42,665 bases of DNA from a virus (IMGVR_UViG_3300047441_000014:1-42665); one strand, 5' to 3'. Shown: positions 1 to 42,665, counted from the first letter of the stretch. Numbers and translations: made by a program. The notes: a model not told the origin generated them from the letters alone.

Positions 1-127
1 CCCGACCGCCTTCGTGTTCAACCCGGTCGACAACGAGCGGATCGACCTGCTCAAGAACAACAACCTCGACTTCTACTTCGGCGGCCCCACGTCCAACCCG
101 AGCGCTCCCCTGTGGGGCCTGCCCCGG
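1..127. repeat. Terminal overlap copy 1, identical to 42539..42665
   Basis: Manual base-by-base comparison: all 127 nt are identical. The overlap lies inside the capsid ORF and preserves its frame, so the window closes into a 42,538-bp circle. The length is typical of an assembler k-mer overlap. Confidence 0.97.
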
Positions 128-343
128 GTGGAGTCGGAGGCCATGCCCGAGGGCACCGGCATGGTGGCCGACTGGCGGATGGCCATCCTGTGGGACCGTG
201 AGCAGGCTGCCATCCAGGTGTCCGACTCCCACGCCGACTTCTTCATCCGCAACCTCGTCGCCATCCTCGCGGAGCTGAGGGCAGCGTTTGGCATCCTGCG
301 CCCCAAGGCCTTCGTCGAGATCGACCTGACGGCCGGCTCGTAA
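1..343 (+). CDS. Major capsid protein (HK97 fold), C-terminal part; continuation of 41586..42665 through the circular junction (codon phase starts at nt 2)
   Basis: Frame is open to TAA 341-343. WRMAILWDREQAAIQVSDSHADFFIRNLVAILAELRAAFGI is a typical C-terminal end of HK97-like capsid proteins. nt 14 equals nt 42552, which is in frame with the ATG at 41586. Confidence 0.9.
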   Translation, partial: PTAFVFNPVDNERIDLLKNNNLDFYFGGPTSNPSAPLWGLPRVESEAMPEGTGMVADWRMAILWDREQAAIQVSDSHADFFIRNLVAILAELRAAFGILRPKAFVEIDLTAGS

Positions 344-425
344 GCACTCACACAAGAGAGGCGGGTCCGTTGCCCGCCAACGTTCCGTGGGAACCGGCAC
401 GGTACCGGCGACGCGGCGAGTTCGG

Positions 426-447
426 CCCGGGGGCTTCGGTCCCCGGG
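426..447 (+). terminator. Strong stem-loop after the capsid gene: CCCGGGGGC-UUCG-GUCCCCGGG (9-bp stem incl. one G-U, UUCG tetraloop)
   Basis: Pairing checked by hand (426-434 with 439-447). Flanked by two further hairpins, 360-378 (GGCGGG/CCCGCC) and 461-476 (GUAGGA/UCCUAC). The position after the most highly expressed late gene fits a terminator/attenuator. There is no clear U-tract. Confidence 0.45.
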
Positions 448-487
448 TCGTTCCGCGTCTGTAGGAAAACTCCTACCTTGTGAACCG

Positions 488-1819
488 ATGAACGTCGCCA
501 TCCTCGTTCCCCGCCGCCGCGGCCGCCCCGACCGCGATCGCCTGTGGTCCTTCGCCCGCTCGTGGTGGGCCAACGACTTCCCCGACTGGCCCATCGTCGA
601 GGGCCACCACGAGGCGACGGAGGGCCCGTTCAACCGGGGCCAGGCCCTCAACCGGGCCGTCGCCGCGGCCGGTGATTGGGACGTGGCCGTGCTCATCGAC
701 GCCGACGTGATCATCGGTCCGGACCAGGTCCGCACCGCGGTCGAAGTGGCGTGGTCGACGGCTCGGCCCGTGCTCGCCTACCACGAGCGGATCCACCTGA
801 CCGAGCGCGGCACGAAGCGGATCGTGGACGGCTACCGCGGCGACTGGCGGGCGTCGGGCATGGTCCAGAAGGTGCTCCTCGACGCGTGCTCGGGCGCCGT
901 CGTGGTGAGCCGCCCGCTATGGGATTCGGTCGGCGGCTTCGACGAGTTGTTCTCCGGCTGGGGCTGGGAAGACGTGGCCTTCCGGGTCGCGGCCGAGACG
1001 CTGACCGGCGCCCCGCTGATCCAGTTGGCGGGCAACATCTGGCACCTCCACCACATCGTCAACCACGAGAACAACCCGGCCGAGCCCACGTTCGTGGCCA
1101 ACCGGGCCCGGGGTGAGCGGTACCGGGCGGCCCGGTGGAACGTGTCGGCCGTCACACAACTGCTCGACGAGGCCGGCGCCGCCCGCTCCCCGCTCCCACC
1201 CGCCGACCCTCTTTCGCCCACCCGCATCCCTCGGATCCTGCACCGGACGGTCCCGGCCGAGACGACCGCCGAGGTCGAGCGATGGTGGGCCCGGTTCGGT
1301 GAGTTGCATCCCGGCTGGACCCTGCTCACCCACCGCGACCCGCTCGACCCCGCCGACTGGCCAGAGACGTCGGACCTGTGGCCCTTGTGCACGTCGGGCG
1401 CGCAGAAGGCCGGGCTCATCCGATTGGAGGCCCTCCACCGGTGGGGCGGCGTCTACGTCGACTCCGACGTGCAGCCCTTCCGGCCGTTCGACTCCCTGCT
1501 CCACCTTCCCGCCTTCGCCGCGTGGGAGGACGCCAAGGTGGTCCCCGACGCCGTCCTCGGGTCCATGCCCGGTCATCCTGCCTTCGCCGCCATGTTGGAG
1601 ATGGCGCGGCGCGAGGTGTGCGCACGTCGCGGGGCATGGCATTCCGGGCCCGGCGTGACCACCGCCATCCTGCCCGGCCGCCCCGACGTGCTCCTCCTCC
1701 CGCCGGGCGCGTTCTACCCCGTGCACTACACGGAAAAGGCCGACCTCGACGCGCACGTCCCCGAGCCGTGGGGCTTCGCCATGCACCGGTGGCACGCGTC
1801 ATGGCTACCATCGCGGTAA
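488..1819 (+). CDS. Two-domain glycosyltransferase (N-terminal GT-A/beta-4-GalT-like + C-terminal GT32/Gly_transf_sug-like)
   Basis: 443-aa ATG ORF. N-half motifs: FNRGQALNRA, DAD, GWGWEDVAF. C-half motifs: PRILHRTVP, AQKAGLIRLEALHRWGGVYVDSDV (DXD). Confidence 0.8.
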   Translation: MNVAILVPRRRGRPDRDRLWSFARSWWANDFPDWPIVEGHHEATEGPFNRGQALNRAVAAAGDWDVAVLIDADVIIGPDQVRTAVEVAWSTARPVLAYHERIHLTERGTKRIVDGYRGDWRASGMVQKVLLDACSGAVVVSRPLWDSVGGFDELFSGWGWEDVAFRVAAETLTGAPLIQLAGNIWHLHHIVNHENNPAEPTFVANRARGERYRAARWNVSAVTQLLDEAGAARSPLPPADPLSPTRIPRILHRTVPAETTAEVERWWARFGELHPGWTLLTHRDPLDPADWPETSDLWPLCTSGAQKAGLIRLEALHRWGGVYVDSDVQPFRPFDSLLHLPAFAAWEDAKVVPDAVLGSMPGHPAFAAMLEMARREVCARRGAWHSGPGVTTAILPGRPDVLLLPPGAFYPVHYTEKADLDAHVPEPWGFAMHRWHASWLPSR

Positions 1820-1875
1820 GGCCCGGCCGATGCGTAAACACCGACCGGGCGACGACGCCTGTTAGGAGGCCCCGC

Positions 1876-2373
1876 ATGGACGACGCTACCCCGCTCGACC
1901 TCACCGACATCGAAGCAAGGGTGCAGGATCCCAACCTGACCCCGGGGCCATGGTGGGTATGGTCATCACCGGGCGACCACCGCGGCGGTGGCGTCGTCCT
2001 CCACGACAGGAATGAGTTCGAGTGCCTCGATACCCTGATCTACGACGAGGGTGGTCACACGAGGGCCGACGCCGAGTTCATCGCCCACGCCCGCACCGAC
2101 ATACCCGCCCTGCTGGCCGAGGTCCGCCGGTGCTGGGAGGCGGCGACTGTGACTGCGCCCGACCCCGCGAAGTGGGAGCGTGGCGACTTGGCCGTCGGCA
2201 CGATACGGAGTGGCTCTCCTGTCGTCGGGACGGCACAGGGTGAGCGCATAGCTGTTCGGTGGGGCACCAGCAATCTCGGCCCCATGGGCAAAGGGTGGGA
2301 AATAGTCGAGGGTGACTACTTCGGTTGGATACCCGAGAAGGATTTGGTCGACGTCGTCCGAATCCGAGGGTGA
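1876..2373 (+). CDS. Ead/Ea22-like protein with small beta-rich C-terminal domain
   Basis: ATG 1876 preceded by AGGAGG (1865-1870). TPGPWW ... AEFIAHARTDIPALLAEV is the Ead/Ea22-type signature. Paralogue of 26697..27137. The longer 1378 start in the ORF track is Arg-rich out-of-context sequence. Confidence 0.75.
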   Translation: MDDATPLDLTDIEARVQDPNLTPGPWWVWSSPGDHRGGGVVLHDRNEFECLDTLIYDEGGHTRADAEFIAHARTDIPALLAEVRRCWEAATVTAPDPAKWERGDLAVGTIRSGSPVVGTAQGERIAVRWGTSNLGPMGKGWEIVEGDYFGWIPEKDLVDVVRIRG

Positions 2374-3734
2374 TCGACTTCCTCGCCACCCGCCCCCACT
2401 ACGCCGACCACCTCCGGCCGGTGTGGGCCGCGATCCCGGTCGAGCATCGCGGGGTGCTCAGTGACCAGGCCACGGTCGGCGACGGCCCCCTCGTCGTGGC
2501 CAGCTCGACCGACCTGGCCTGGGCCCTCCGTTGTCGTCGGCCCGTCGTCCTCATGGAGCACGGCGCGGGCCAGTCCTACAGCAACCGCCACTCGTCCTAC
2601 GCCGGTGGTCGCGGTCGCGACGGCGTGGCCATGTTCCTCGTCCCATCCGGGGCCGTGGCTGACCGCAACCGCCAGAAGTACCCGCGCATCCCCAACGTCG
2701 TCGTCGGCTCGCCGCGGGTGGACGCGCTCCTAGGCGTTTCCGGTTTCTCGACCGAACCGGCCGGTGTTAAAACCGGAAACCCCGGCTGCCGGACCGTCGC
2801 CGTCTCCTTCCATTGGCGTTGCACCGTCGCCCCCGAGGCCGGGTCCGCCATCGACGACTTCTTCCCCGAGATGCTGGCGACGGCCTGGCAACTCCGCAGG
2901 GAAGGGGTCGACCTCATCGGCCACGCCCACCCGCGGATCGCCGACGAGGCCGAGGCCATGTTCCGAGCCGCGGGCATCGAGTTCATCCCCACCTTCGACG
3001 AGGTCGTGGCCCGGGCCGACCTCTACGCCGTCGACAACTCGTCCACCCTGTTCGAGTTCGCCGCGCTCGACCGGCCGGTCGTCGTCCTCAATGCCCGCGC
3101 CTACCGCCGCAACGTCCACCACGGCCTCCGTTTCTGGTCCGAGGCCGACGTGGGACTACACGCGGAGCCCGGTGAGCTCGCGGCCACGATCCTCGCCGCG
3201 CTGGCCGACCCACCCGACGTGGCCCGGTCCCGCCGTGCGGCCGTCTCCCGGGTTTACGCTGTCCTCGATGGAACGTCCGCCGCTCGGGCCGCCGACGCGA
3301 TCATGAGCCTCCTCGACTCGCGTGCGATCAACGTCCGCCACGGTCGGCGGGTGTGCCTGATCTGCGGCGTGGCGAATCACACGTGCGGGCCCGCCACCAC
3401 CGTCACGGCCGTGGACCTCCCGACCGACGCCCCGAAGGAGTCAGGCATGCTCAAGCGGTACCCGAACCCCGACAGGCCCGGGGCCTTCGTCAAGCTCACC
3501 GAGTCGACCGCCCGCCGGATGGGCCTGGAACCACCCGTGAGCGCCCCAGGATGGCCCGAGACGGTCCCCGGGGCACCGGAAGGGCCCGACCCCCGGGTAT
3601 CGGCCCAGGACGGCCCGTCTGGCGGGCTCCTGGCCGACGGTGAGAAGGACCAGCCCCCGCCCGAACCCAAGGACGACCCGAAGGACAAGGCCCGCCCCGC
3701 CCCCGCCCGGCGCCGTCGAGCGGTGTCGCCGTAG
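2370..3734 (+). CDS. GT-B fold glycosyl-/glycerophosphotransferase-like enzyme (TagF-like signature) with Cys cluster and Pro/Lys-rich tail
   Basis: GTG 2370 overlaps the upstream stop (GTGA). ADLYAVDNSSTLFEFAALDRPVVVLNA resembles the D-x-SS...E...P motif of TagB/TagF-type and other GT-B enzymes. C-terminal CLICGVANHTC is followed by a low-complexity PPPEPKDDPKDKARPAPARRRR tail. Confidence 0.65.
   Translation: MIDFLATRPHYADHLRPVWAAIPVEHRGVLSDQATVGDGPLVVASSTDLAWALRCRRPVVLMEHGAGQSYSNRHSSYAGGRGRDGVAMFLVPSGAVADRNRQKYPRIPNVVVGSPRVDALLGVSGFSTEPAGVKTGNPGCRTVAVSFHWRCTVAPEAGSAIDDFFPEMLATAWQLRREGVDLIGHAHPRIADEAEAMFRAAGIEFIPTFDEVVARADLYAVDNSSTLFEFAALDRPVVVLNARAYRRNVHHGLRFWSEADVGLHAEPGELAATILAALADPPDVARSRRAAVSRVYAVLDGTSAARAADAIMSLLDSRAINVRHGRRVCLICGVANHTCGPATTVTAVDLPTDAPKESGMLKRYPNPDRPGAFVKLTESTARRMGLEPPVSAPGWPETVPGAPEGPDPRVSAQDGPSGGLLADGEKDQPPPEPKDDPKDKARPAPARRRRAVSP
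2736..2780. repeat. 45-bp imperfect palindrome inside the GT-B gene (11-bp perfect arms GTTTCCGGTTT / AAACCGGAAAC, centre CCGGCCGG)
   Basis: Arms 2736-2746 and 2770-2780 are exact reverse complements. The centre is AACCGG|CCGGT at about 2755-2765. The segment is locally A/T-richer than the flanks. Confidence 0.8.
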
Positions 3735-4339
3735 TGCCTGACCTCCTCGCCACGGTCGACGAGCTGCGGCTGTTCATGGACGACCCGACGCTCGACGAGG
3801 AACGGTCGGCGCTCCTGCTGCGCCTGGCCGGGGGTGAGGTCCGGGCCTACACCGGCAACCTGTTCGACTACGTCGAGGGCGAGGTCCGGATCCTCAACGG
3901 CACCGGGACGACGGTGCTCCTCCTCCCCGAGGTTCCCGTCACCGACGTGACCGCCCTGTTCGAGGCCGCGGGCCGCTCGGACGAGGTCGAGCTGGCCGGC
4001 CCCCTCGACACATCGCCCGTGTGGGAATGGGACGAGGACGGCGTCATCGTCCGCATCGACGGGGGCGTCTTCGCCCGTCGCCGACGGTGGTACTCCGTGA
4101 CCAACGACCACGGCTTCGAGGTCAGTCCCGACGAGGTCAAGGCGGTCGTGCTGCGCATGGCGGCCGGCGTCTTCGACAACCCCGACGGCATCCGGCAGGA
4201 GACGCTCGGCAAGTACAGCTACACCGTCGCCGGCGACTCGGCCGGGCTCGGCCTGACCGCCGCCGACCGGCGCCTGCTCGACCCCTACTTCATCTCGTCC
4301 CGGATGCGTGGCGGGACCGCGGTGGGCTCCGGATCGTGA
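3734..4339 (+). CDS. Head-tail adaptor (gp6-like head-tail connector family)
   Basis: GTG 3734 overlaps the upstream TAG. The N-terminus ATVDELRLFMDDPTLDEERSALLLRLAGGEVRAYTGN matches the gp6-like connector pattern. It is placed downstream of the capsid module. Confidence 0.7.
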   Translation: MPDLLATVDELRLFMDDPTLDEERSALLLRLAGGEVRAYTGNLFDYVEGEVRILNGTGTTVLLLPEVPVTDVTALFEAAGRSDEVELAGPLDTSPVWEWDEDGVIVRIDGGVFARRRRWYSVTNDHGFEVSPDEVKAVVLRMAAGVFDNPDGIRQETLGKYSYTVAGDSAGLGLTAADRRLLDPYFISSRMRGGTAVGSGS

Positions 4340-4689
4340 GCTTCCGTCGGCTCCTCGAGCGAACCATCACGATCGTGCCCCGCCTCGTCACCGGCCAGGA
4401 CGCCCGCAACAACGACCTCGTCACCGACGGCACGCCGATCGGCCCCCTCCCCGCCGCCCGCGACCAGTTGGAGGCGTCCGAGAGCGTCGACACCGAGGAC
4501 GCTCAGACCCGGGTGTTCGTCTACATGCTCCCCTGCGTCTTCGGTGGCCAGTCCCTCGTGATCAGCGGCCACGACCGGATCATCGACAACGGCGAGCCGT
4601 TCGAGGTCCGGGGTACGCCCGAGGTGATCAGGCGCCGGCGCGGCGGTCGACCTCACCACATCGAGGCGATCGCCTACCGCCAGGACTGA
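4336..4689 (+). CDS. Head closure / head-tail joining protein
   Basis: GTG 4336 in a GTGA overlap. 117 aa. The RTITIV...TRVFVYMLP...ISGHDRIIDNGEPFEVRG pattern resembles Phage_H_T_join/stopper proteins. Synteny is directly after the adaptor. Confidence 0.6.
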   Translation: MSFRRLLERTITIVPRLVTGQDARNNDLVTDGTPIGPLPAARDQLEASESVDTEDAQTRVFVYMLPCVFGGQSLVISGHDRIIDNGEPFEVRGTPEVIRRRRGGRPHHIEAIAYRQD

Positions 4690-4707
4690 CGGGCGTAGCA
4701 TTCCGGC

Positions 4708-4983
4708 ATGACGATTCGCCACGGAACGACGGCGGCTGCCACCCTCGCCTCGGTCGACCTGCCCGCCGACTACGGCTCCGTCGCCGTGCTCCACTACTCG
4801 GGGACGACCGACCTGCTCGTACGGGTCGACGGCGGCGTGCCCGCCCTCACTGGCGACGGGTCCAACGTGACCCGCGTGGTCCCGCCCGGGTCGCGCCGAA
4901 TCATCGACCGGTCCAACCTCGACGGCCCGACCCAAGTCCGGCTCCTCTCCACCGGCGTCGTCGGCTTCGAGATCGAGGTCTGA
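4708..4983 (+). CDS. Hypothetical small beta-rich protein
   Basis: 91-aa ATG ORF in coding-like composition, immediately upstream of the large fibre gene. No recognisable motif. Confidence 0.55.
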   Translation: MTIRHGTTAAATLASVDLPADYGSVAVLHYSGTTDLLVRVDGGVPALTGDGSNVTRVVPPGSRRIIDRSNLDGPTQVRLLSTGVVGFEIEV

Positions 4984-4987
4984 GCGG

Positions 4988-7984
4988 GTGGACAAGTTCG
5001 AGCGGATCGCCATCGTCACCCAGGCGGACGTCGACGCCGACGTGGCCGCGCTGGAGGCGCAGATCGCGGCCGAGGCCGCCACCGCCCGCAATGCCACCAA
5101 CCTCACGTCGGGGACGGTGGCGTTGGCTCGGTTGGCGGGCATCACCGACGGGCAGATCGCCGCGGCCAACAAGGACGGGACCGCCGGCACGCCGAGCCTC
5201 CGCACGCTGGGGACCGGGGCGGCCCAGGCGGCCCAGGGCTCGGCGCTGGCCGCTGAAATCGTCACCGCCCGCAATGCAACCAACCTCACGTCGGGGATCG
5301 TGGCCGACGCCCGGATCGCCTCGACGATCGTACGGGTCGGGGCAGAAAAGGTATTCAGCGAGGACTACCGGCTCGACTCCCTTGGTGCAACTCGGAGCGA
5401 CGACGACACCATTTCGGCTGCCATCGCAGCCGCCTTCCCCTCGGCTGCCAGCGGGATGGTCAAGCGGCTTCTCCTAGGGACAGCGGGCGGTGTGCCAGTT
5501 CCTTATTCGCTGACGACGAACCATGTAATCGGCGCGGCCGGAAGGCGTTACTACGGCGCCCACCTGGCAGGGTTCGGTCGGGGCCTATCGCGTATCGACT
5601 GGAATGGTGATCCGGCATCCGGCCCTTTCACCTTCTTGAACGTCCACATGCCGACCGTGGAAGAATTCTCGATGGGGCCGTTCCCATCGGCGGCGACGGT
5701 GCGGCCAGCCTTCTGGATCAAGTTCGATGTCGAAAACGGCCAGTCCGGGTTCCGAATTCGTACGAAGAACCTGGACTTCTACGATGCCGTCGTCGGCATG
5801 CAGTTGGGCACGGGTCACGCATCGGCGCAGATGAACCAAGGGCTCCATGAGGGACTCGGGTTCCTGGCTTGCGATACGCCCGTCGACTTCAATGCTCCCT
5901 CCGGAGAGATCCAGACTTTCGAGGGTTTCGACATCGACCAGCGCGTGGCCGGTTCGACCTGTTTCCGTGTGCATGCGTCCAAGGGCCTGCACCTGAAGGG
6001 CGGTGAGGTTACTTACCACGCAGCGGGTGACAACTACCTTGTTCGTGCCACGGGGAACTGTTATGGCGGTGGGTTCAAGATAGAAGATGTCCGGCTTGAA
6101 GAAGCATGGTGTATCGCTTCTTTCCTGAATGCTGATGCCGACTATACGAATGGTATCCAATTCCCTCTGGATATCGAAGTCAATAACGTGGTCGTCCAAC
6201 GGTCCAACTACACGCTGACCGATCCGTGCGACGTTGTGCAAACCGCTTATCAGGGAACCGTCTCTTTCAACGAGTGTGAATTCCCGCAACCCAATAGCCG
6301 AGCACGGGTCATCGGTCTAACGAACACGCGGGTGGCCGTCACGGCCTTCAGAGAGTGCAAGATAAACAACGCTGCTGCGTTGACCGATCCGAGCGCACTC
6401 TTCAAGGTGGAGGCCTCGGGCTCGGCGTTCGCCAATGGCGGCCACCTTGGCATCGTCGAGGGATGTGTCGGGATGACCACGACCATTCCCCACACGGTTC
6501 CAGCCAACGGGGCGATCCCCTCGCAGTGGATACACCAGGACCAATCACAGGTGGGGTCCGGCGCCGTGACTCGACTCGTGAACATCGACACCATTGCTCG
6601 CGGTGTCACGATCAAGCCCGTCACGGTCACCTCCGCTGCTCGGCCTGATCCGACGTCCGTCGCGTCCGGTGCGCTCCTGTACGACTCGGACCTGAAGGCT
6701 CCCATTACGACCACCGGCACGGGGTGGCGGGACGCTATCGGTCGTCGTCGGTTCCTTGCCGTGCGGGCGGTGGCCATCGCCGCTCTCCCTGCGGCCACCT
6801 ACGTCAACGGCACCGCCGGCGTAGGGGCGACTCTGACCGCTACCGCCAATGGGGCGCTACCGGCGCAGGACGGCATCACCTTGGTTGTCGCTGACCGGGT
6901 GCTGGTTGCGTCACAAGCGGCGGCTCCACAGAACGGCATCTACGTGGTGACGGCCGTGGGCGACGCGTCGAACCCTTGGGTCCTGACTCGGGCCACGGAT
7001 GCCGACAGTGCGGCCGAGGTCGTGTACGAGGCGCTCGTCCCCGTGACTGCCGGCACCGTCAACGCCGGGAAGCTGTGGCAGTTGTCCACCACCGGAACGA
7101 TCACGATTGGTACGACGGGTCAGGCGTGGCAAGTCGCAGACCCCGTGTCGGGGTCGCAGAAGTCCCGGCCCGATACCTTTGCGGTGGGTAGTTCTACTGT
7201 CACGAAACCCTCGTGGGCGCTTACCGCTGAGATGGCAGTCCAGGGGGCGAGTGGTGGCGGCGGCGGCGGCCGCCGTGGCGCCGCTGGCACGGCGCGCGTC
7301 GGCGGCGGCCCCGGAGCCGCGGGCGGTATGTCTCGACGGCTGGTGAGTGCGGCCGATCTGCCGGGCACCTTCAACGTCACGGTCGGTGCTGGTGGGTCGG
7401 CTGGGGCTGCCGCCACCACCGATGACACGAATGGTGGGAACGGTGGGAACGGTGGAGCGTCCTTCTTCGGTCCCACCATTGGCAGCAACTACGTCGCCGC
7501 CAATGGTGGGACGGGCGGCGTAGGAGGCGGGGCGGGAGCGGGCGGCACGGTAGGTACCGCCGGGGCGGGAATGTTCACTGGCGGGATAGGCGTGGCGGCT
7601 CCGTTGACGGGCGCAGCGGCTGGTGGTCCCGGGACGGGCATCGCCTCGGGCGGCGGGCCAGGCGGCGGAATTACGACTGCTGACGTCGCTAGCGTGGGCG
7701 GGACATCTACCGCCCCGTCGGCTCGTCCCGGAGGTTCCGGCGCTGCGGGTGGCGCTGTCCCCGGCGGGGCCGGTGCGGCTGGGTTCGGGCCAGGGACTAC
7801 CGCCCCAGGGCAAGGCATGGGGGGTGGCGGTGGGGCGGGAAGTGTTGTCGGTACGGGCGGTGCGGGCGGTGCGGGTCATCTGGGCGGTGGCGGCGGCGGT
7901 GGCGGTGCATCTCAGAATGGCAACAACTCGGGACCTGGCGCCGTCGGTGGCGATGGCATCGCAGCGATCACGTGGTTCGGGTGA
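4988..7984 (+). CDS. Large fibre/tailspike-like protein: N-terminal fibre repeats, pectate-lyase-like beta-helix core, glycine-rich C-terminal domain
   Basis: 998 aa, GTG start. The ARNATNLTSG(T/I)VA motif occurs twice. LDSLGATRSDDDTISAAIAAAF resembles the start of Pectate_lyase_3-type tailspikes and is followed by an Asn/Cys/Gly-rich strand-turn pattern. The C-terminus (GGGGGGRRGAAG...GGNGGNGGASFFG...GGGGGGGGAS...ITWFG) is like actinophage glycine-rich minor tail proteins. Confidence 0.8.
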   Translation: MDKFERIAIVTQADVDADVAALEAQIAAEAATARNATNLTSGTVALARLAGITDGQIAAANKDGTAGTPSLRTLGTGAAQAAQGSALAAEIVTARNATNLTSGIVADARIASTIVRVGAEKVFSEDYRLDSLGATRSDDDTISAAIAAAFPSAASGMVKRLLLGTAGGVPVPYSLTTNHVIGAAGRRYYGAHLAGFGRGLSRIDWNGDPASGPFTFLNVHMPTVEEFSMGPFPSAATVRPAFWIKFDVENGQSGFRIRTKNLDFYDAVVGMQLGTGHASAQMNQGLHEGLGFLACDTPVDFNAPSGEIQTFEGFDIDQRVAGSTCFRVHASKGLHLKGGEVTYHAAGDNYLVRATGNCYGGGFKIEDVRLEEAWCIASFLNADADYTNGIQFPLDIEVNNVVVQRSNYTLTDPCDVVQTAYQGTVSFNECEFPQPNSRARVIGLTNTRVAVTAFRECKINNAAALTDPSALFKVEASGSAFANGGHLGIVEGCVGMTTTIPHTVPANGAIPSQWIHQDQSQVGSGAVTRLVNIDTIARGVTIKPVTVTSAARPDPTSVASGALLYDSDLKAPITTTGTGWRDAIGRRRFLAVRAVAIAALPAATYVNGTAGVGATLTATANGALPAQDGITLVVADRVLVASQAAAPQNGIYVVTAVGDASNPWVLTRATDADSAAEVVYEALVPVTAGTVNAGKLWQLSTTGTITIGTTGQAWQVADPVSGSQKSRPDTFAVGSSTVTKPSWALTAEMAVQGASGGGGGGRRGAAGTARVGGGPGAAGGMSRRLVSAADLPGTFNVTVGAGGSAGAAATTDDTNGGNGGNGGASFFGPTIGSNYVAANGGTGGVGGGAGAGGTVGTAGAGMFTGGIGVAAPLTGAAAGGPGTGIASGGGPGGGITTADVASVGGTSTAPSARPGGSGAAGGAVPGGAGAAGFGPGTTAPGQGMGGGGGAGSVVGTGGAGGAGHLGGGGGGGGASQNGNNSGPGAVGGDGIAAITWFG
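5081..5297 (+). repeat. 34-bp direct repeat pair (5081-5114 and 5264-5297, 33/34 identical) encoding the ARNATNLTSG fibre motif, period 183 bp
   Basis: ACCGCCCGCAATGC(C/A)ACCAACCTCACGTCGGGGA was read at both positions. Confidence 0.9.
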
Positions 7985-7990
7985 CCTGCC

Positions 7991-8302
7991 GTGCTCTACA
8001 TCCCTGACCCCGACTACGAGCGCGAGCTCCTCCGCACGTCCGAGGTGGTCGACCTCCTCAAGGGGCTCACGACGGATGGGGCCAATCTCTACGCCGACTC
8101 CGTCCCGGTCGACCAGGGCGACCTCAAGGAGTCCGTCTTCGGCGACGTGGCCATGACCGCGGAAGGGGCCATGGGCCGGGTCGGCGCCACCGATTGGAAG
8201 GCGGCTCTGGTGGAACTCGGCACGTCCAAGCGTTCCCCCGACGGCTCACTGCGCCGCTCCGTCGAGACGCTCGGCCTCACGATCGAAGAAGGTGGTCGGT
8301 GA
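7991..8302 (+). CDS. HK97 gp10-like neck/tail-completion protein
   Basis: GTG start, 103 aa. ADSVPVDQGDLKESV...GRVGATDWKAALVELGTSK matches the gp10-family pattern (aPvdtG.L..si ... y...vE.Gt). Confidence 0.65.
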   Translation: MLYIPDPDYERELLRTSEVVDLLKGLTTDGANLYADSVPVDQGDLKESVFGDVAMTAEGAMGRVGATDWKAALVELGTSKRSPDGSLRRSVETLGLTIEEGGR

Positions 8303-8712
8303 CCCAAGTCGACGCCGAGACGCTCACCGTGCAACACCTTCAGTCCGCCACCACCGTCACCGGCCTCGCCCCCGCCACCGACATCTCGACGAAGCTGCGC
8401 CGCGGATGGGTCGCCGGGGATCCCGCCGTGCGCGTCCGGCGCATCGGTGGGCTGACGACCGAGGACGTGGCCGCCCACCTGGGCCGCTACCGCCTACAGG
8501 TGGAGGCCTTTGCCGGGACGGAGTTGGCCGCCTTCACCCTCGCCTCGGCCGCCTTCGACGCGCTCCGGGCCCTGGCCGGGCAGGCGAACGACTTCGGCGT
8601 GGTCACCGCGGTGGGCAACGACCTCGGCCTGACCAACTCGCCGGACCCCGACTCGGACTCGGCGCGCTACCTGTTCGGCGTGGTCCTCTACGCCCACGCT
8701 CCCATCGCGTAG
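8299..8712 (+). CDS. Tail terminator-like protein
   Basis: GTG 8299 in a GTGA overlap. 137 aa. Sits between the gp10-like gene and a tail-tube gene. The overall pattern (…PAVRVRRIGG…YRLQVEAFAG…ARYLFGVVLY) resembles DUF3168-type terminators. Confidence 0.55.
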   Translation: MTQVDAETLTVQHLQSATTVTGLAPATDISTKLRRGWVAGDPAVRVRRIGGLTTEDVAAHLGRYRLQVEAFAGTELAAFTLASAAFDALRALAGQANDFGVVTAVGNDLGLTNSPDPDSDSARYLFGVVLYAHAPIA

Positions 8713-8722
8713 CCTCTCGCTC

Positions 8723-9349
8723 GTGGACCCACGCGAGATCGTCGTTCCCGGGACCGGCGCTATCTACCTGGCCAACCCGGGCTCGCTCGTCCCCGACGTC
8801 GTCACCACCGCCCTGGGCGCGGAATGGCTCGAGTTGGGCTACGCCACCGAAGACGGCGTGAAGTGGACGGAGACGGCCGACAACGGCGGCGAGTGGGCCT
8901 GGCAGAACCGCCGTCGCCTCCGTGACACCTACGGCCGCCAGTCGGGCGAGGTCGTCTTCACCCTGCTCCAGTGGTCCTCGTTCAACCTCGTGGCGGCCTT
9001 CGGCGGCGGCCACGTCGAGGAGGTCGCGCCGGGCCTGTTCACCTTCACCCCGCCCCGGGGCAACGACCCGAAGATGCTGGCCGTCGAGTGGGCCGACGGC
9101 GCCCGCCACTACCGAGTCGTCTTTCTCCGTGGCTCCGTGTCGCAGGCGGTGGAGGTCAACCTCGTTCGCACCGCGGCGGCCCTCCTGCCCATGACCTTCG
9201 TCGTCTTCGCCGCCGACGAGGATGCGGACCCGTTCCTCTTCCAGACGGACGACCCCGCCTTCGCCCCGGTCGACGTGGGGCTGCTGACCGAAGACGGCAA
9301 GTTCGTCGACACCGAGGCCGACGAGCCCCTTCTGCTGGAGGTCGTGTGA
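8723..9349 (+). CDS. Major tail (tube) protein paralogue 1, with acidic C-terminal extension
   Basis: 208 aa. Shares the blocks WLELGYATEDGVKWT, MLAVEW.DGA and RTAA.LLP.TF with 11417..11986. It carries an extra tail, FQTDDPAFAPVDVGLLTEDGKFVDTEADEPLLLEVV. Confidence 0.75.
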   Translation: MDPREIVVPGTGAIYLANPGSLVPDVVTTALGAEWLELGYATEDGVKWTETADNGGEWAWQNRRRLRDTYGRQSGEVVFTLLQWSSFNLVAAFGGGHVEEVAPGLFTFTPPRGNDPKMLAVEWADGARHYRVVFLRGSVSQAVEVNLVRTAAALLPMTFVVFAADEDADPFLFQTDDPAFAPVDVGLLTEDGKFVDTEADEPLLLEVV

Positions 9350-10860
9350 CCCTCATCGGGGAGCGCATCTCGCAGCTCGGCCCCGCTGGAACGCTCACCG
9401 GCGCCGAGAAGATCCCGATCGTCCAGGCGGGGGTCACCTACCGGTCGACGGTCGGCGCGGTCATCGCCCTCGCCGCGGTCACCCTCGCCCCCATCGCCAA
9501 CCCCACCTTCACCGGCACCGTCACCGGCACGTTCAACATGCCGTCGGGCTCGGCCCTGTCCTACGCCACCACCCCCATCCTCGCCCTGCCCGGCGGGCTG
9601 GCAGCGAACAACATCCGGCTCGGCCAGAACGCCCTCAGCGACCCCGGCTTCACCGGCACCGACACGCTCGCCCTCGCCACCGACGCCCTTCAGTACGTCA
9701 CCGGGGCCACCAGCTTCAACACGGCCGGCGGCAGCCAGAGCCAGAAGAACAACATCGACGGTGAGCGGAATGCCTCCTGGGGCTTCCACTCCCTCCTGCT
9801 CAACCAGCACGGCGACAACAACTGGGCCGGCGGCGTCGGGGCGGGCCGGTCCTTCCTCGGGAGCGAGGGCACCTTCACCGGCCAGGTCTCGAACTACTAC
9901 AACCAGACCGGCCTGTTCCCCGCCACCTACGGCTCGCAGTCGGCGACGAATTGCACGGGCGACTACGTCAACGCCTTCGGCGCCTATGCCGCCTACGGCG
10001 TGAGCCCCGGCGGATCGACCGCCAGCCGTGTCGCCGTGGTGGGGACGTACACGGCCTACACCATCTCCTCCGCGGTGGCGACGGCCGCCCTCGGCGTCGA
10101 GAGCTTCCGGTCCCTCACCACCGGTTCCTACAACTCCGGGCTCGGCGACGGTGCCGGCTACACCGAGACTCCGGCCAACGCCGTCACCACCGCCAGCTTC
10201 TGCACCTACGTGGGCGCTCAGTCGGGGCCGGGCTCCGTGACCCCCAGGGACTACGCCGGTGGCTTCGGATGGCGCAGCCACACGGGCGGCGTGGGAGCCC
10301 TGGCCTTCGGTGCCTTCACCAGCGCCGGTCACAACTACTCCGTGGCCATCGGTACCGCCGACCTCGGCGCGGGGCCTGTCGGCGCCACCACCACGGCCGA
10401 CAACCAAATCCGCCTGGGCACCCCGGCGCACACCACGAGCATCCCCGGTGCCCTGGCCGTCACCGGAGCGGTGTCGACGGGCGTGCTCACCATCCCGGCC
10501 GGGTCCGCCGGCGCGCCGGGCCTAGGCCTGGCCGGGTCGCCGACGACGGGGCTCTACGCGGTGGGCACGGACCGGCTCGGCATCGCCGTGGCCGGAACGC
10601 TGGTGGCCGACTTCCAATCGACGAACATCGCCCTGCGCCAGAACATCCAGTTCACCGACGGGGTCCAGGTCGCGCTCGGCTCGGCCTCCGGGACGATATG
10701 GGGCTCGGCCAACACGCAGAAGCAGGGTTGGTGGGGAGCCGCCGCCGTCGTCCAGCCGAGCGGGATGCCCGCTGCCGCCGGCAACCTGGCCACGGCGGTC
10801 GACCTGGTCAACTACATCCGCGACAACGTCCTGCTCGCCACCGGGCTGGCGACCGTATGA
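9346..10860 (+). CDS. Fibre-like protein (phage fibre N-terminal anchor motif; YadA/Hep_Hag-like Gly/Ala/Thr-rich repeats)
   Basis: GTG 9346 with GGAGG at 9337-9341, overlapping the upstream stop. ISQLGPAGTLTGAEKIPIVQAG and PIANPTFTGTVTG are common tail-fibre N-terminal motifs. NYSVAIGTADLGAG and ADNQIRLGTP resemble adhesin head repeats. Confidence 0.7.
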   Translation: MTLIGERISQLGPAGTLTGAEKIPIVQAGVTYRSTVGAVIALAAVTLAPIANPTFTGTVTGTFNMPSGSALSYATTPILALPGGLAANNIRLGQNALSDPGFTGTDTLALATDALQYVTGATSFNTAGGSQSQKNNIDGERNASWGFHSLLLNQHGDNNWAGGVGAGRSFLGSEGTFTGQVSNYYNQTGLFPATYGSQSATNCTGDYVNAFGAYAAYGVSPGGSTASRVAVVGTYTAYTISSAVATAALGVESFRSLTTGSYNSGLGDGAGYTETPANAVTTASFCTYVGAQSGPGSVTPRDYAGGFGWRSHTGGVGALAFGAFTSAGHNYSVAIGTADLGAGPVGATTTADNQIRLGTPAHTTSIPGALAVTGAVSTGVLTIPAGSAGAPGLGLAGSPTTGLYAVGTDRLGIAVAGTLVADFQSTNIALRQNIQFTDGVQVALGSASGTIWGSANTQKQGWWGAAAVVQPSGMPAAAGNLATAVDLVNYIRDNVLLATGLATV

Positions 10861-10871
10861 GGGGGGCCTGA

Positions 10872-10982
10872 ATGGCCAGGAAGAACGACGGTCACACGCC
10901 CGACGAGACGGGGGTCTGCACCGGCTGCCTGCACGACGAGACGGTGTGGGTCAACCCGTGCCCGGCCAAGAAGGCCAAGTGA
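10872..10982 (+). CDS. Small Cys-containing peptide (36 aa), hypothetical
   Basis: ATG 10872 preceded by GAGGGG. MARKNDGHTPDETGVCTGCLHDETVWVNPCPAKKAK. Stop overlaps the next GTG (GTGA). Below the ORF-track size cut-off. Confidence 0.4.
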   Translation: MARKNDGHTPDETGVCTGCLHDETVWVNPCPAKKAK

Positions 10983-11365
10983 GCCTTCGCCGCGACCACT
11001 CCGAGGTCGTCCTCGATTTCGACGGGAAGCCGATCCCCAACAACATCGGGACCGAAGAGGCGCCGGAGATCGTAGACCTGACCTTCAAGCACCTGGCCAA
11101 CATCTGCCTGTACGGCCTCGACCGGGACGAGCGTCTCGGCCCGGAGAAGAAGTCGAAGCTGTTCCGCCTCGCCCTCAAGTTCCACCGGGGCAAGGTGGCC
11201 AGGATCACCGAGGTCGAGCGCGACCTGCTCAAGGAGCGCGCCGGTGTCCTCCTCGGGCAGATGACCTACGGCCGCTTCTGCGACTGGATCGAAGGCAAGC
11301 CGCAGGTCGTCGGCGACGATGGCGGGTCCGGTGACGATGACGAGGATGACGATGGGTCCGACTAG
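10979..11365 (+). CDS. Hypothetical protein with poly-acidic C-terminus (possible fibre/tail assembly helper)
   Basis: GTG 10979 coupled to the upstream peptide (an alternative GTG at 10946, the ORF-track start, is possible). Ends GDDGGSGDDDEDDDGSD. Lies between a fibre gene and tail-tube paralogue 2. Confidence 0.55.
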   Translation: MSLRRDHSEVVLDFDGKPIPNNIGTEEAPEIVDLTFKHLANICLYGLDRDERLGPEKKSKLFRLALKFHRGKVARITEVERDLLKERAGVLLGQMTYGRFCDWIEGKPQVVGDDGGSGDDDEDDDGSD

Positions 11366-11416
11366 TCCCGCCGCCGTGGTCCTAACCTCGCGGCTACCAG
11401 ACCTCAGGAGGTCACA

Positions 11417-11986
11417 GTGACGAAGACGGCCGACGAGCTAGTCGTCGGAGCCAACGGCTCGATTTACACGGCGCCGGTCGGCTCCACCGTGCCCGCTTCC
11501 ATCGCCACCGCGCTCAACGCCTCGTGGCTCGAACTCGGCTACGCCACGGAGGACGGCGTCAAGTGGACGGACGGCAAGACGGTCCAGCCCATCCGGGCCT
11601 GGCAGTCCTTCTACGACCTGCGCCGGATCATCACCGAGCGCATGGGCTCGCTCGTGTTCAGCCTCATGCAGTGGAACGGCGAGACGGTGAAGCTGGCCTA
11701 CGGCGGCGGCGAGATCACCGAGCCCACGTCGGGCGCCTTCCGCTACACCCCGCCTGCGCCCGAGGAGGTCGACGAGCGCATGCTCGCGGTCGAGTGGGTC
11801 GACGGCGCGTACGACTTCCGCCTGATCTTCCCGAAGGGGATGGTGAGCGAGAACGTCGAGACGACTGTCACCCGAACCGCCGCCGGCCTGCTCCCCATCA
11901 CCTTCGCCCTGCTGGGCGAGGAGGGCGAGGAGCCGTTCATCCTCGACACCAACCACCCCGCGTTCGCGGCCTCGGTCGGCTCGTGA
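11417..11986 (+). CDS. Major tail (tube) protein paralogue 2 (canonical position upstream of chaperones)
   Basis: GTG 11417 preceded by AGGAGG. 189 aa. Conserved blocks shared with 8723..9349. Followed directly by the G/G-T chaperone genes and the tape measure. Confidence 0.8.
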   Translation: MTKTADELVVGANGSIYTAPVGSTVPASIATALNASWLELGYATEDGVKWTDGKTVQPIRAWQSFYDLRRIITERMGSLVFSLMQWNGETVKLAYGGGEITEPTSGAFRYTPPAPEEVDERMLAVEWVDGAYDFRLIFPKGMVSENVETTVTRTAAGLLPITFALLGEEGEEPFILDTNHPAFAASVGS

Positions 11987-26700: not shown

Positions 26701-27137
26701 GCGAGTTCGACAGGGAAGCGGCTAGGGCGCGGTGCGAGGCGGCAACGCCGGGGCCGTGGGTGCGGGCTGCACACCACGGGCTGAGGTCGACGCACCCCGC
26801 CATGAGCCGTGCGGGCTCGGTTGGTTCTCTGCAATACACCGATGGCAGCGGATGGGAGCACGAGGGCGACCTCGACTTCATCGCCCACGCCCGGACCGAC
26901 CTCCCCGCCGCCCTCGACGACATCGACCGGCTGAAGGCCGAACTAGATGAGGCGCGGGACGCCTACGCCTGGCGCTTGGATGCGTCGGACCAGCAAGCGC
27001 GAGACCTCCGGACACTCACCGCCGAGCGTGACGCCCTCCAAGCCCGCCTCGATGAGGCCACCGCCACGATCGACGACCTCCACGAGCGGGTGGCCGACCT
27101 TGAGCGACGGACGGGCGAGAGGTCGGGTGGCGTGTGA
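26697..27137 (+). CDS. Ead/Ea22-like protein with C-terminal coiled coil
   Basis: ATG 26697 (ATGA overlap). ATPGPWV ... DLDFIAHARTDLPAALDDIDRL, then a heptad-like LKAELDEARD...LQARLDEATATIDDLHERVADLE. Paralogue of 1876..2373. Confidence 0.7.
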   Translation: MSEFDREAARARCEAATPGPWVRAAHHGLRSTHPAMSRAGSVGSLQYTDGSGWEHEGDLDFIAHARTDLPAALDDIDRLKAELDEARDAYAWRLDASDQQARDLRTLTAERDALQARLDEATATIDDLHERVADLERRTGERSGGV

Positions 27138-27913
27138 TGGGCGTCGATACCGCCATCGGGTGGACCGATCACACGTTTAATCCCTGGTGGGGCTGCACCC
27201 GCGTGTCCGAGGGGTGCAAGTTCTGCTACGCCGAGACGTTCGCCAAGCGGACGGGCAACATCGTGTGGGGCAAAGGCCAGCCCCGCCGTTTCTTCGCCGA
27301 CAAGCATTGGGACGAGCCCAGGAAGTGGGACGACGCGGCCAAGGCCGCCGGTAGCCCGGCGCTCGTCTTCTGCGCCAGCATGGCCGACGTGTTCGAGGAC
27401 CGGGCCGACCTCGTCTCCCACCGCGCCCGCCTCTTCGACCTGATCCTCGACACGCCCCATCTCCAGTGGCAGCTCCTCACCAAGCGCCCGGAGAACGTCA
27501 TGCGGCTCGTCCCTGCAGCGTGGTCGTCGGACTGGCCGCCGAACGCGTGGATCGGCTGCACCATGGAGAACCAGTCCGCGGCCGACGACCGCGGGCCGGT
27601 ACTTGTAGAGATCCCGGCGCCCGTCCTCTTCGTCTCGGCCGAGCCACTTCTCGGTCAGGTCGACCTCTGGCCATGGCTCGGCTGCACGTGGATCCCCAAC
27701 GTCATGGGCATCGACTGGATCATCATCGGCGGGGAGTCGGGGCCGCACCACCGTCCGCTCGACCTGGCCCACGCTCGGTACCTCGTCGGACAGGCCAATG
27801 CCTTCGGCGTGCCCGTCTTCTTCAAGCAGGTCGGCGGCCAGTACCCGACCTCCGGTGGCGACGAACTCGACGGAGTCCGCTACAAGCAGTTCCCCGCGGC
27901 GGCTGGTCGATGA
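27137..27913 (+). CDS. Phage Gp37/Gp68 family protein (DUF5131, three-Cys radical-SAM-like motif)
   Basis: IGWTDHTFNPWWGCTRVSEGCKFCYAE, LLTKRP and IIGGESGP are family hallmarks. Start is ATG 27137 (TGATG overlap) or GTG 27134. Confidence 0.85.
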   Translation: MGVDTAIGWTDHTFNPWWGCTRVSEGCKFCYAETFAKRTGNIVWGKGQPRRFFADKHWDEPRKWDDAAKAAGSPALVFCASMADVFEDRADLVSHRARLFDLILDTPHLQWQLLTKRPENVMRLVPAAWSSDWPPNAWIGCTMENQSAADDRGPVLVEIPAPVLFVSAEPLLGQVDLWPWLGCTWIPNVMGIDWIIIGGESGPHHRPLDLAHARYLVGQANAFGVPVFFKQVGGQYPTSGGDELDGVRYKQFPAAAGR

Positions 27914-36385: not shown

Positions 36386-36661
36386 CCTGGGCTCCCCAGC
36401 GAACCGTTCTTCCGCCGTGACCTCACCGACGACATCCGCGTCATGGGCGTCAGCGCTGGGGTCCACCTCTCGCACGGCGGCCGACGGCTCGGCTACTACG
36501 AGTCGTCGTCCCTCGTCTTCGAGCCCTCCCAGGCTCGCCAGTTGGCCGCCCTTCTGGTGGAGGTTGCCGACCCGATCGACCCCGATGTCGGCGCCGCCCC
36601 GCTACCGGCGGTGATCTACGACCCCAACCGCGTCAGTGTCACGGTCGAGTCCGATGTCTGA
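36359..36661 (+). CDS. Hypothetical protein (about 100 aa)
   Basis: AAGGGAG (36345-51) is 7 nt from ATG 36359. ATG 36353 is too close to the SD but cannot be excluded. Confidence 0.55.
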   Translation: MPDTPMPDIPGLPSEPFFRRDLTDDIRVMGVSAGVHLSHGGRRLGYYESSSLVFEPSQARQLAALLVEVADPIDPDVGAAPLPAVIYDPNRVSVTVESDV

Positions 36662-37148
36662 CCCCCTCGCCCACCTGTACGCCGACCTCGGCATGGACGA
36701 CCCGCCCCCGCCCGTGGCCACGTCCCTCGAAGCGCTCACCGAGGAGACGGGCGGCGAAGAGACGCTCTCCGACCACGACCTCGACGAACTCACGCTCATC
36801 GTCGCGACCCGCATCGTCGCCGGGAAGTGGTCGTGGACCAGTCGACAGGTCGAAGAGCTGGGCCTGGGAAAGATCGTCCTCGATGGCGGCCTACCCCTCA
36901 TGGGTGGAGGCTACGGGCCCGACAGCCTCCGGTTCGTCCCCAACGCCGCTGGCGTCGAGGTTGTCCGCAGGCTTCACGTGGGGAGCTTCTCCCTCCTCCC
37001 CTCCCCTGCTGGCCGCCCCACCCTCCACGCCGTCATCAAGCGGTGCCTCATGGAGATCGAGCCCCAAGAGTGCGGCGTCGACTCCAAGGTGCGCCACATC
37101 GTCCACGCCATCCGCCGGTGGTTCCCCGATGGGCGCTTCGACGTATGA
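36654..37148 (+). CDS. Hypothetical protein (164 aa), acidic N-terminus
   Basis: ATG 36654 overlaps the upstream end by 8 nt. No motif. Confidence 0.55.
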   Translation: MSDPLAHLYADLGMDDPPPPVATSLEALTEETGGEETLSDHDLDELTLIVATRIVAGKWSWTSRQVEELGLGKIVLDGGLPLMGGGYGPDSLRFVPNAAGVEVVRRLHVGSFSLLPSPAGRPTLHAVIKRCLMEIEPQECGVDSKVRHIVHAIRRWFPDGRFDV

Positions 37149-37898: not shown

Positions 37899-37937
37899 TC
37901 CATCTCGTCGCGCCGGTCGCGGCGTAGCCTGACGGTC

Positions 37938-38162: not shown

Positions 38163-38164
38163 GG

Positions 38165-41585: not shown

Positions 41586-42665
41586 ATGAAGCAGACGAAG
41601 TCCGACCTCCACGCCGAGATGATGGCCGCGGTCGCCGCAGGCGGCGCCATCGCCACCAAGGCCGACGGCGAAGGCCGCGACCTGACCCCCGAAGAGCGCC
41701 AGGACATCACGACCGAGCTGGAGAAGGCCCGGGCGGCGAAGTCCGCCATCCTCGCCCTCGACGGCGACACCGCCCTGCGCGACGAGTTGAACGTGCTCGG
41801 CCGCCCCGTCGGTGAGTTGGCCAAGGGCGGCGGCCACCAGCCCGGCTCGGGCCTGACGCTCGGCACCAAGTTCACCGACGCCCCCGAGTTCAAGAACTGG
41901 CTGTCCAGCCTCTCCGGCGGCTCCGGGCGCATCCCCGAGTCGGCCAAGGGCCTGCACTCCCCGGCCATCGCCTTCGGCATGAAGGATCTCGTGACCGGCC
42001 TGTCCCCGACCTCGGCCGGCGCGCTGGTGACCAACGACTGGCGGGGCCTGCTCGACGGCCTGTCGCAGTTCCAGCGGCCGCTCACGATCATGGACCTGAT
42101 CACCCGCGGCAACACCACGTCGGACACCGTCGAGTACGCCCGGGTGACCGGCTTCACCAACAACGCCGCGCCGGTGCCCGAGGCCACCACCGCCGGGACC
42201 ATCCCGAGCCCGGACGCGTCCAACACCGCGGGCCTCAAGCCGCAGTCGGGCCTCGCCCTGGAGAAGGTCACCGCCGTCGTCAAGACGATCGCCCACTGGC
42301 TCCCCGCCACCAAGCGGGCCCTGTCGGACGCCGCTCAGATCCGGACCCTCATCGACCAGTTCCTCCGCTACGGACTGGACGAGGAGATGGAAGACCAGGT
42401 CATGGTCGGCGACGACGTCGGGGAGAACTTCCCGGGCATCCTCAACACGTCCGGCACCCAGGCCATGCCGTGGGATACCGACCTGCTCACCACCACCCGC
42501 AAGGCGCGGACCCTGGTCCGCACCGTCGGGCGGGCCCGCCCGACCGCCTTCGTGTTCAACCCGGTCGACAACGAGCGGATCGACCTGCTCAAGAACAACA
42601 ACCTCGACTTCTACTTCGGCGGCCCCACGTCCAACCCGAGCGCTCCCCTGTGGGGCCTGCCCCGG
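41586..42665 (+). CDS. Major capsid protein (HK97 fold) with N-terminal coiled-coil delta domain; open at the window end, continues at 1..343 (431 aa in total)
   Basis: ATG 41586. No stop before the window end (which is why it is absent from the ORF track). The N-terminal about 70 aa are helical/charged (ERQDITTELEKARAAKSAILALDGDTALRDEL). The body contains TIAHWLPATKRALSDA and similar HK97-like blocks. Confidence 0.9.
   Translation, partial: MKQTKSDLHAEMMAAVAAGGAIATKADGEGRDLTPEERQDITTELEKARAAKSAILALDGDTALRDELNVLGRPVGELAKGGGHQPGSGLTLGTKFTDAPEFKNWLSSLSGGSGRIPESAKGLHSPAIAFGMKDLVTGLSPTSAGALVTNDWRGLLDGLSQFQRPLTIMDLITRGNTTSDTVEYARVTGFTNNAAPVPEATTAGTIPSPDASNTAGLKPQSGLALEKVTAVVKTIAHWLPATKRALSDAAQIRTLIDQFLRYGLDEEMEDQVMVGDDVGENFPGILNTSGTQAMPWDTDLLTTTRKARTLVRTVGRARPTAFVFNPVDNERIDLLKNNNLDFYFGGPTSNPSAPLWGLPR
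42539..42665. repeat. Terminal overlap copy 2, identical to 1..127
   Basis: See copy 1. Confidence 0.97.

Follow-up and report, generated by a model that had tools for sequence, protein, structure and literature searches.

A probable virion-protein glycosylation cassette in the capsid-adaptor interval of an uncultivated phage

The viral sequence IMGVR_UViG_3300047441_000014 (42,665 nucleotides [nt], analyzed at full length and referred to below as the window) begins and ends with the same 127 nt (1 to 127 and 42539 to 42665), which indicates a circular assembly and a complete phage genome of about 42.5 kb. Its GC content is ∼70%, and a gene for a WhiB-like regulator points to a host that is probably actinobacterial. 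Cultured phages searched for near-identical or similar DNA gave no match to the genome. Joined over the junction (41586 to 42665, then 128 to 343), the gene for the major capsid protein (MCP) encodes 431 amino acids (aa). Between it and the gene for the head-tail adaptor lie three open reading frames (ORF1 to ORF3), which a sequence-only reading of this DNA had described as a glycosylation-type cassette of three genes oriented with the late structural genes. Their coordinates, the family matches of the flanking MCP and adaptor, and the strong third-position GC bias of all three (0.87 to 0.92) confirmed three co-oriented genes at this site. The stop codon of ORF2 overlaps the start codon of ORF3 (GTGA), and that of ORF3 overlaps the start of the adaptor gene (TAGTG), in line with the translational coupling proposed for the last gene. 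Two of the three genes, ORF1 and ORF3, probably serve the glycosylation of virion proteins.

ORF1 carries two different glycosyltransferase domains in one chain. The family phrog_1721 ("galactosyl transferase") matched residues 1 to 220 (E value, 2e−24), to which PF02709 added a weak match (21.0 bits, below its cutoff of 23), and PF04488 (GT32) matched residues 300 to 338 above its cutoff (25.9 bits; cutoff, 23). In 41 homologues, D71-x-D73, E161-D162 of the GWGWE161D162 motif, and D325-x-D327 were invariant. An AlphaFold model built on the alignment of these homologues (pLDDT, 93) showed two GT-A domains separated by a disordered linker at residues 236 to 241, and its best Foldseek matches in the PDB were K4 chondroitin polymerase, beta4GalT1/7, Och1, LARGE1, and Mimivirus R699. 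Profiles and model thus agree on the fusion of a galactosyltransferase (GalT)-like with a GT32-like domain that had been read from the sequence.

The N-terminal domain of ORF1 connects the cassette to phages Che8 and Corndog, in which glycosylation of the capsid and tail tube by the phages' own glycosyltransferases has been shown experimentally (PMC12363180, PMC11600133). It matched Che8 gp109 with 28% identity (E value, 6e−11, in a 14-protein database) and Corndog gp37 with an E value of 5e−15, and further homologues were Phrappuccino gp143/144 (38% identity to gp143) and prophiGD91-2 gp74. The C-terminal domain shared 47 to 48% identity with the stand-alone proteins Phrappuccino gp142 and prophiGD91-2 gp73. 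The fused form, for which a survey of related phages had been proposed, recurs widely in metagenomes: there were 758 matches, and the best-scoring 120 all spanned 94 to 100% of ORF1. Assignments of the two ORF1 domains in the loci described below are first-round phmmer matches; iterative HMMs for these domains drifted, with fused proteins pulling in both. One full-length homologue (P0033, 59% identity) lies in a nucleotide-metabolism module on another contig (L006, logan SRR11006471_17565, positions 1 to 11806), next to genes for a thymidylate kinase-like protein, thymidylate synthase, dCMP deaminase, Stealth_CR2, DNA polymerase A, GT4, and an SNF2 helicase. This hints that the fused enzyme possibly serves DNA hypermodification in that other phage.

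ORF3 had been read as a TagF-like enzyme of the GT-B fold. In support of this, PF04464 matched its nucleotide-binding half above the cutoff (29.2 bits; cutoff, 22.1), and within the ORF3 family this profile was matched by 43 of 45 members as against 4 of 45 for the epimerase family. The AlphaFold model has a GT-B core at residues 1 to 320, mostly with pLDDT above 90, whose best structural matches were TagF, TarL, and UDP-GlcNAc 2-epimerases, with TagF scoring no better than the epimerases. A Foldseek search of viral models (BFVD) returned remote GT-B proteins only. Profile and structure searches thus recovered glycosyltransferase folds in both enzymes, two GT-A domains in ORF1 and one GT-B in ORF3. 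Residues invariant in the ORF3 family are H14, H64 (EHGAGQ), H148, H185/H187 (GHAHPR), D222-N-S-S, E229, R246, and R254, and we take the D-x-S-S, E/D-F, and R-P-V motifs to resemble the TagF signature. The catalytic histidine pair of TagF is H444/H548; the ORF3 sequence and the family profile had no significant match among PDB sequences and hence no residue-level alignment to TagF. Sequence searches of PDB chains with ORF1 and ORF2 likewise gave no significant match, and NCBIfam offered no useful names for any of the three proteins.

Beyond its core, ORF3 continues into an extension that is restricted to the long members of the family, among them the copies located between MCP and adaptor genes in the related contigs L007 and L008. 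The extension comprises a C-x2-C-x4-H-x-C (or CCCC) knuckle, a beta-hairpin plus helix with the pattern YPNPxRPGxFxKL...ARRxGL (residues 361 to 385, confidently modeled), a disordered proline-rich and acidic linker, and a basic RRRR end. It may dock the enzyme to its substrate on capsid proteins. More than 1,200 relatives of ORF3 were found, of which only one occurs in a deposited phage record, as the "hypothetical protein" Rctr41k_32 beside capsid and adaptor genes. In five loci, ORF3 homologues are accompanied by TagD/RfaE-like nucleotidyltransferases, each ∼145 aa long and bearing HxGH and RTxGxS motifs, in two of them (L056 and L078) directly downstream. These score about equally against TagD (glycerol-3-phosphate cytidylyltransferase) and RfaE domain II, which leaves their specificity ambiguous, and no HxGH cytidylyltransferase motif of the TagD type was found in the window. 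Polyol-phosphate or glycerol-phosphate chemistry for ORF3 is thus only suggested. No membrane-spanning or strongly hydrophobic segment was predicted in ORF1, ORF2, or ORF3.

The position of the genes is shared with other phages. On L007 the order is MCP, ORF1-like, ORF3-like, and adaptor, and on L008 it is MCP, a 520-aa gene without known function, a methyltransferase, ORF3-like, and adaptor; in related contigs, the slot between MCP and adaptor is kept while its gene content varies. ORF3 is the element found most constantly beside capsid and adaptor genes. In 66 nonredundant IMG/VR loci with ORF3 relatives, the two genes upstream mostly encoded MCPs, GalT-like glycosyltransferases, proteases, and methyltransferases, and the two genes downstream mostly adaptor, head-closure, and neck proteins. 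Moreover, in L026 to L031, L035, and L060 (for example, L027:6311-8422), a GalT-like GT-A domain is fused to an ORF3-like GT-B domain directly after the MCP gene. These fusion proteins of 670 to 900 aa belong to phages of ∼50% GC whose MCPs end in ...APTAGS or ...APAEAS. The synteny of the ORF3 family, together with the domain fusions, indicates that the three catalytic modules are a functionally linked set tied to head genes.

ORF2, in turn, is missing from L007, L008, and other related cassettes and is therefore probably an inserted accessory or passenger gene. It had been called Ead/Ea22-like, a label that found no backing: no Pfam or NCBIfam match was obtained even at an E value of ≤1, and the sole profile match was to phrog_722 (function not known). 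Its homologues cover only the N-terminal ∼80 aa, and the phages that encode them carry them in early or lysogeny regions. Of the three-gene cassette, then, ORF1 and ORF3 stand, ORF2 does not, and the cassette is functionally a two-gene one. The presumed capsid terminator upstream of ORF1 also needs revision. The region is stably folded (−77.2 kcal/mol; z = −4.0 against shuffles), but a simple scan of its plus strand called no canonical U-tract terminator. The structure may act as an attenuator or mRNA stabilizer through which less enzyme than capsid protein is made.

A further trait links the cassette to structural proteins. Among ∼50 ORFs of the window, only the MCP (...DLTAGS), the adaptor (...AVGSGS), and the major tail (tube) protein (TTP; ...AASVGS) end in Gly-Ser (GS). 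A second tail-tube paralogue, which the sequence-only reading had assumed, was not seen in family scans of the window ORFs. Similar endings occur in Che8 (MCP, ...NKTGS; TTP, ...YSDGS), in Corndog (MCP, ...PLVGS; gp49, ...IKGDS), and in the MCP of prophiGD91-2 (...ESSGS). In loci with ORF1- or ORF3-like genes, the last residue was serine in all MCP (28/28) and TTP (14/14) homologues, mostly as GS. The tail is also present in other capsid families, as in L004 (MCP, ...FTGAGS; TTP, ...LGATGS) and Rctr41k (capsid, ...VAEGS; tail, ...DLPGS). Adaptors end in GS in the closest relatives that bear such genes between MCP and adaptor and mostly do not in relatives that lack them.

The relation between tail and gene island could be followed in 83 viral loci with homologues of the window MCP, in 45 of which both the MCP and the adaptor were identified. 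An island shows as a long gap from MCP to adaptor, and MCPs ending in [GA]S (Gly-Ser or Ala-Ser) are called tailed. All eight tailed MCPs were followed by a gap of 2.4 to 5.5 kb, whereas of 37 loci with an untailed MCP (mostly ...FVEIDLTA), 36 had a gap of <1.3 kb before the adaptor (Fisher P = 4e−8, uncorrected for phylogeny). Nine tailed loci were scanned downstream of the MCP, and every one held a glycosyltransferase (GT4, GT8, or GT-A Nucleotid_trans), in some cases with TylF-like methyltransferases or a radical SAM enzyme. In one relative, a radical SAM/SPASM enzyme lies inside the MCP-adaptor glycosyltransferase island (L162:9760-10536), which suggests extra chemistry on the glycan or the tail peptide. 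The TTP followed the same pattern, being Ser-terminal in none of 14 loci with untailed MCPs versus 16 of 16 others (2 tailed loci and the 14 loci with ORF1- or ORF3-like genes). The share of ORFs ending in GS was 2.0% in island-free loci versus 13.4% and 9.1% in two island-bearing sets. The cultured phages Renna12, Galaxy, and Lton, used as controls, encode 45%-identical MCPs and have neither an island after the capsid gene nor GS on MCP, adaptor, or TTP; the full annotation of Renna12 lists no glycosyltransferase.

Features of the window, with nucleotidyltransferases of related loci
Feature	Position	Strand	Remarks
MCP gene, 5′ part	41586..42665	+	PF05065, phrog_10; continues at 128-343 across the circle junction
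MCP gene, 3′ part	1..343	+	product ends ...FVEIDLTAGS; Gly-Ser codons 335-340; stop 341-343; proposed acceptor tail
Structured intergenic region	344..487	+	144 nt; 12-bp GC stem, UUCG loop, flanking hairpins
ORF1	488..1819	+	443 aa
ORF1 N-domain (aa 1-235)	488..1192	+	beta-1,4-galactosyltransferase-like GT-A
ORF1 C-domain (aa 236-443)	1193..1819	+	GT32/Och1-like GT-A
ORF2	1876..2373	+	165 aa; ATG behind AGGAGG
ORF3	2370..3734	+	454 aa; GTG start
ORF3 catalytic core (aa 1-330)	2370..3359	+	GT-B fold, TagF-like, PF04464
ORF3 C-terminal extension (aa 331-454)	3360..3734	+	zinc-knuckle-like motif; no Pfam match
Head-tail adaptor	3734..4339	+	phrog_442; GTG start; product ends ...GTAVGSGS; proposed third acceptor
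TTP	11417..11986	+	PF25681, phrog_117; product ends ...HPAFAASVGS; Gly-Ser codons 11978-11983; proposed second acceptor
Nucleotidyltransferases beside ORF3 homologues	L048:3015-3449, L056:7355-7834, L058:3490-3915, L063:3143-3595, L078:7923-8351		

Elsewhere in the window, the head-tail connector module contains two large insertions with fiber-like genes (4988 to 7984 and 8971 to 10860), both absent from the close relatives L007 and L008. The first encodes 998 aa, of which the last ∼250 residues are extremely Gly-rich and residues ∼596 to 715 gave PHROG matches to head-decoration and tail-fiber families; the second holds an ORF (at most 629 aa) whose sequence is fiber-like. Their products could be neck or head fibers. 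A DUF5131 gene (phage Gp37/Gp68 family; 27134 to 27913; E value, 1e−65) lies near a DnaB helicase gene and the gene for a 484-aa N6/N4 DNA methyltransferase.

The homology to gp109 and gp37, the shared GS tails, their co-variation with the island, the soluble nature of the enzymes, and scans of the genome that found no DNA-hydroxymethylation genes together support the multienzyme glycan on virion proteins that had been suggested from the sequence, with the host envelope as the alternative acceptor. We consider it likely that the phage encodes a virion-protein glycosylation cassette expressed with its late structural genes. Judged by sequence, this would be a variant of the known virion O-glycosylation logic with a different enzyme set, and the tails of MCP, TTP, and adaptor would be its acceptors. 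Working as soluble enzymes in the cytoplasm, ORF1 and ORF3 may build an O-linked glycan on the terminal serine of the ...Gly-Ser-COOH tails of MCP and TTP, which are short and flexible, with the adaptor as an additional target in the clade of the window phage. ORF1 would perform two successive sugar additions, its beta4GalT-like domain inverting and its GT32/Och1-like domain retaining, both by analogy. ORF3 could start the chain or use a nucleotide-activated donor to add a phosphodiester-linked polyol-phosphate or sugar-phosphate unit. Owing to the folded RNA that follows the capsid gene, the enzymes are probably made in catalytic amounts and not in those of structural proteins, and ORF2 would be a passenger. 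We infer the sugars, the order of the steps, the phosphodiester chemistry, and any biological benefit (surface shielding or stability). A more specific version, in which the ORF3 family attaches a polyol-phosphate, a sugar-phosphate, or a short teichoic acid-like chain to the terminal serine of GS-tagged proteins and ORF1 supplies sugars, is tentative and in our view rather doubtful.

Several observations weigh against virion glycosylation at these tails. Of the cultured phages, Phrappuccino has the ORF1-like genes closest to those of the window; its MCP, gp55, was predicted to end in GS, and the prediction failed, the actual ending being ...IIRKAA. At L100, a methyltransferase and GT4 form an island, yet the MCP ends in ...DLTA, and the association of tail and island may in part reflect shared ancestry, for which the test was not corrected. 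The GS tails occur with very different sets of glycosyltransferases and hence may present a generic exposed serine rather than a specific tag. The GT25 enzyme of Che8 and Corndog has no counterpart here, which leaves the cassette with, at most, a candidate initiating enzyme. A full homologue of ORF1 occurs in the nucleotide-metabolism module of L006. Glycosylation is experimental for Che8 and Corndog, whereas the window phage is uncultivated and known from its sequence alone. Finally, the glycans of Che8 are reportedly O-linked at C termini (Freeman et al., 2023), and no description of C-terminal attachment sites was found in the literature searched.

Some prophages encode glycosyltransferases by which wall teichoic acid or O-antigen is altered, and they offer a model for a different target, the host envelope, where modification of teichoic acid-like or other wall polymers during infection could block superinfection or stop new particles from adhering to debris. 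Characterized members of the TagF family, to which ORF3 belongs, act on wall teichoic acid, and ORF3 homologues are joined by TagD/RfaE-like nucleotidyltransferases in the five loci mentioned. We nevertheless regard an envelope target as unlikely: the three proteins have no membrane or strongly hydrophobic segment, and the genes are part of the late head module, where they are translationally coupled to the adaptor gene and stand away from lysogeny genes, with no integrase turning up in the scans done of the window ORFs. The gain of GS on MCP, TTP, and adaptor that coincides with the island would also be left unexplained.

A further reading takes the island genes for cargo, selfish or accessory, that settled in a permissive capsid-adaptor site, with no common target and with GS tails as an unrelated feature of the lineage. 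The highly variable island content (GT4, GT8, GT-A, TagF-like, methyltransferase, and radical SAM) and the evident insertion of ORF2 would fit such cargo. The GS tails, by contrast, are repeated on two or three structural proteins that are not related to one another and in unrelated capsid families, and they are present in Che8 and Corndog as well, though the glycosyltransferases of these phages are not all beside the capsid gene. Nearly all island genes are carbohydrate related, and hundreds of homologues share the catalytic motifs without variation. Pure cargo is therefore improbable.

The glucosyltransferases of T4 glycosylate modified bases in phage DNA. In Bacillus phage SP-15, a CDP-glycerol glycerophosphotransferase, a TagF-like gene, lies in a DNA-hypermodification cluster and a role on DNA has been proposed for it (PMC5977210). 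Glycosylation or phospho-glycosylation of DNA bases by ORF1 and ORF3, to which this gene and the L006 homologue among thymidylate synthase, dCMP deaminase, and PolA genes lend some credit, is nonetheless very improbable and was rejected for the window genome, since the window ORFs scanned included no base-modifying enzymes (no thymidylate synthase/hydroxymethylase homologue, dCMP deaminase, or DNA polymerase), the cassette sits in the head module, and the co-variation of the GS tails would again be left unexplained.

If virion glycosylation by ORF1 and ORF3 is correct, several consequences follow. To our knowledge, only a few mycobacteriophages have been shown to glycosylate their virions with enzymes of their own, and the trait has been regarded as rare elsewhere. 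The window phage would place the same logic, with different enzymes, in an uncultivated actinobacterial phage lineage whose glycosyltransferases occupy a hypervariable capsid-adaptor island, and in unrelated phages (GC, 31 to 73%) a GS tail on MCP and TTP goes along with such islands. Should the tail prove to be the acceptor, sequence could be used to predict which phages are glycosylated, and tail plus enzymes could be transplanted to give therapeutic phages glycan coats. Such glycans reduce neutralizing-antibody responses in mice (PMC10568470). In the TagF-like family, protein modification would have gained a new type of enzyme. If the polyol-phosphate version holds, phage particles would bear a phosphodiester-linked, teichoic acid-like coat on a universal two-residue tag, from which glycosylated phages of many phyla could be predicted by sequence alone. 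The kind of system is already known. The enzyme combination, the phage-specific TagF-like family, and the breadth of the capsid-adaptor glycosyltransferase island appear new, as does the predictive Gly-Ser tail, which Freeman et al. (2023) may already describe for mycobacteriophages.

The nearest known systems are those of Che8 (gp108 to gp110) and Corndog (gp35 to gp38). They share with the window phage phage-encoded glycosyltransferases, which in Corndog lie in the head module just upstream of the MCP gene, and one homologous enzyme, the N-terminal domain of ORF1 being related to Che8 gp109 and Corndog gp37. The MCP ends in GS in all three and the TTP in the window phage and Che8, while Corndog gp49 ends in ...KGDS. 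The remaining enzymes differ. Che8 gp110 and Corndog gp38 match PF01755 (GT25) and are reported to be essential for capsid glycosylation, whereas this family had no match among the window proteins scanned; neither protein was similar to ORF1 or ORF3 by BLASTP or hhalign, the ORF1 family was unrelated to gp110 by hhalign, and hhalign found no relationship between the ORF3 family and Che8 gp108. The window cassette has no GT25 and no methyltransferase; in their place stand the fusion of GalT-like and GT32-like domains and a GT-B enzyme of the TagF type. In addition, the adaptor of the window phage is GS-tailed, and its host is not Mycobacterium; the cultured phages nearest to it by capsid protein infect Arthrobacter and Gordonia.

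The closest cultured homologues of both ORF1 domains are found in Phrappuccino/Settecandela (gp142 to gp144) and prophiGD91-2 (gp73 to gp75), in adjacent glycosyltransferase clusters with SAM methyltransferases. There, unlike in the window phage, the two domains are separate genes in reversed order (GT32-like, then GalT-like), located away from the head module and without a TagF-like partner, and the Phrappuccino MCP does not end in GS. The 178-aa gp54 of Phrappuccino (L181, within 36656 to 38227), encoded just upstream of gp55, ends in ...ALAGGS and might be the modified protein of that phage. TagF and TarL (PF04464; PDB entries 3L7I to 3L7M and 8VA1) resemble ORF3 in the GT-B fold and in invariant histidines in both halves; ORF3 differs in its core of only ∼330 aa, in having no membrane-association domain, and in its phage head-module context, and the window genome has no TagD gene. 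Two different GT-A domains in one chain, as in ORF1, are also known from K4 chondroitin polymerase of Escherichia coli, LARGE1, chondroitin synthases, and Mimivirus R699. For K4 chondroitin polymerase and R699 the match is one of architecture only (10 to 14% identity; root mean square deviation of ∼20 Å over both domains) and gives no ground for regarding ORF1 as a polymerase of a repeating disaccharide.

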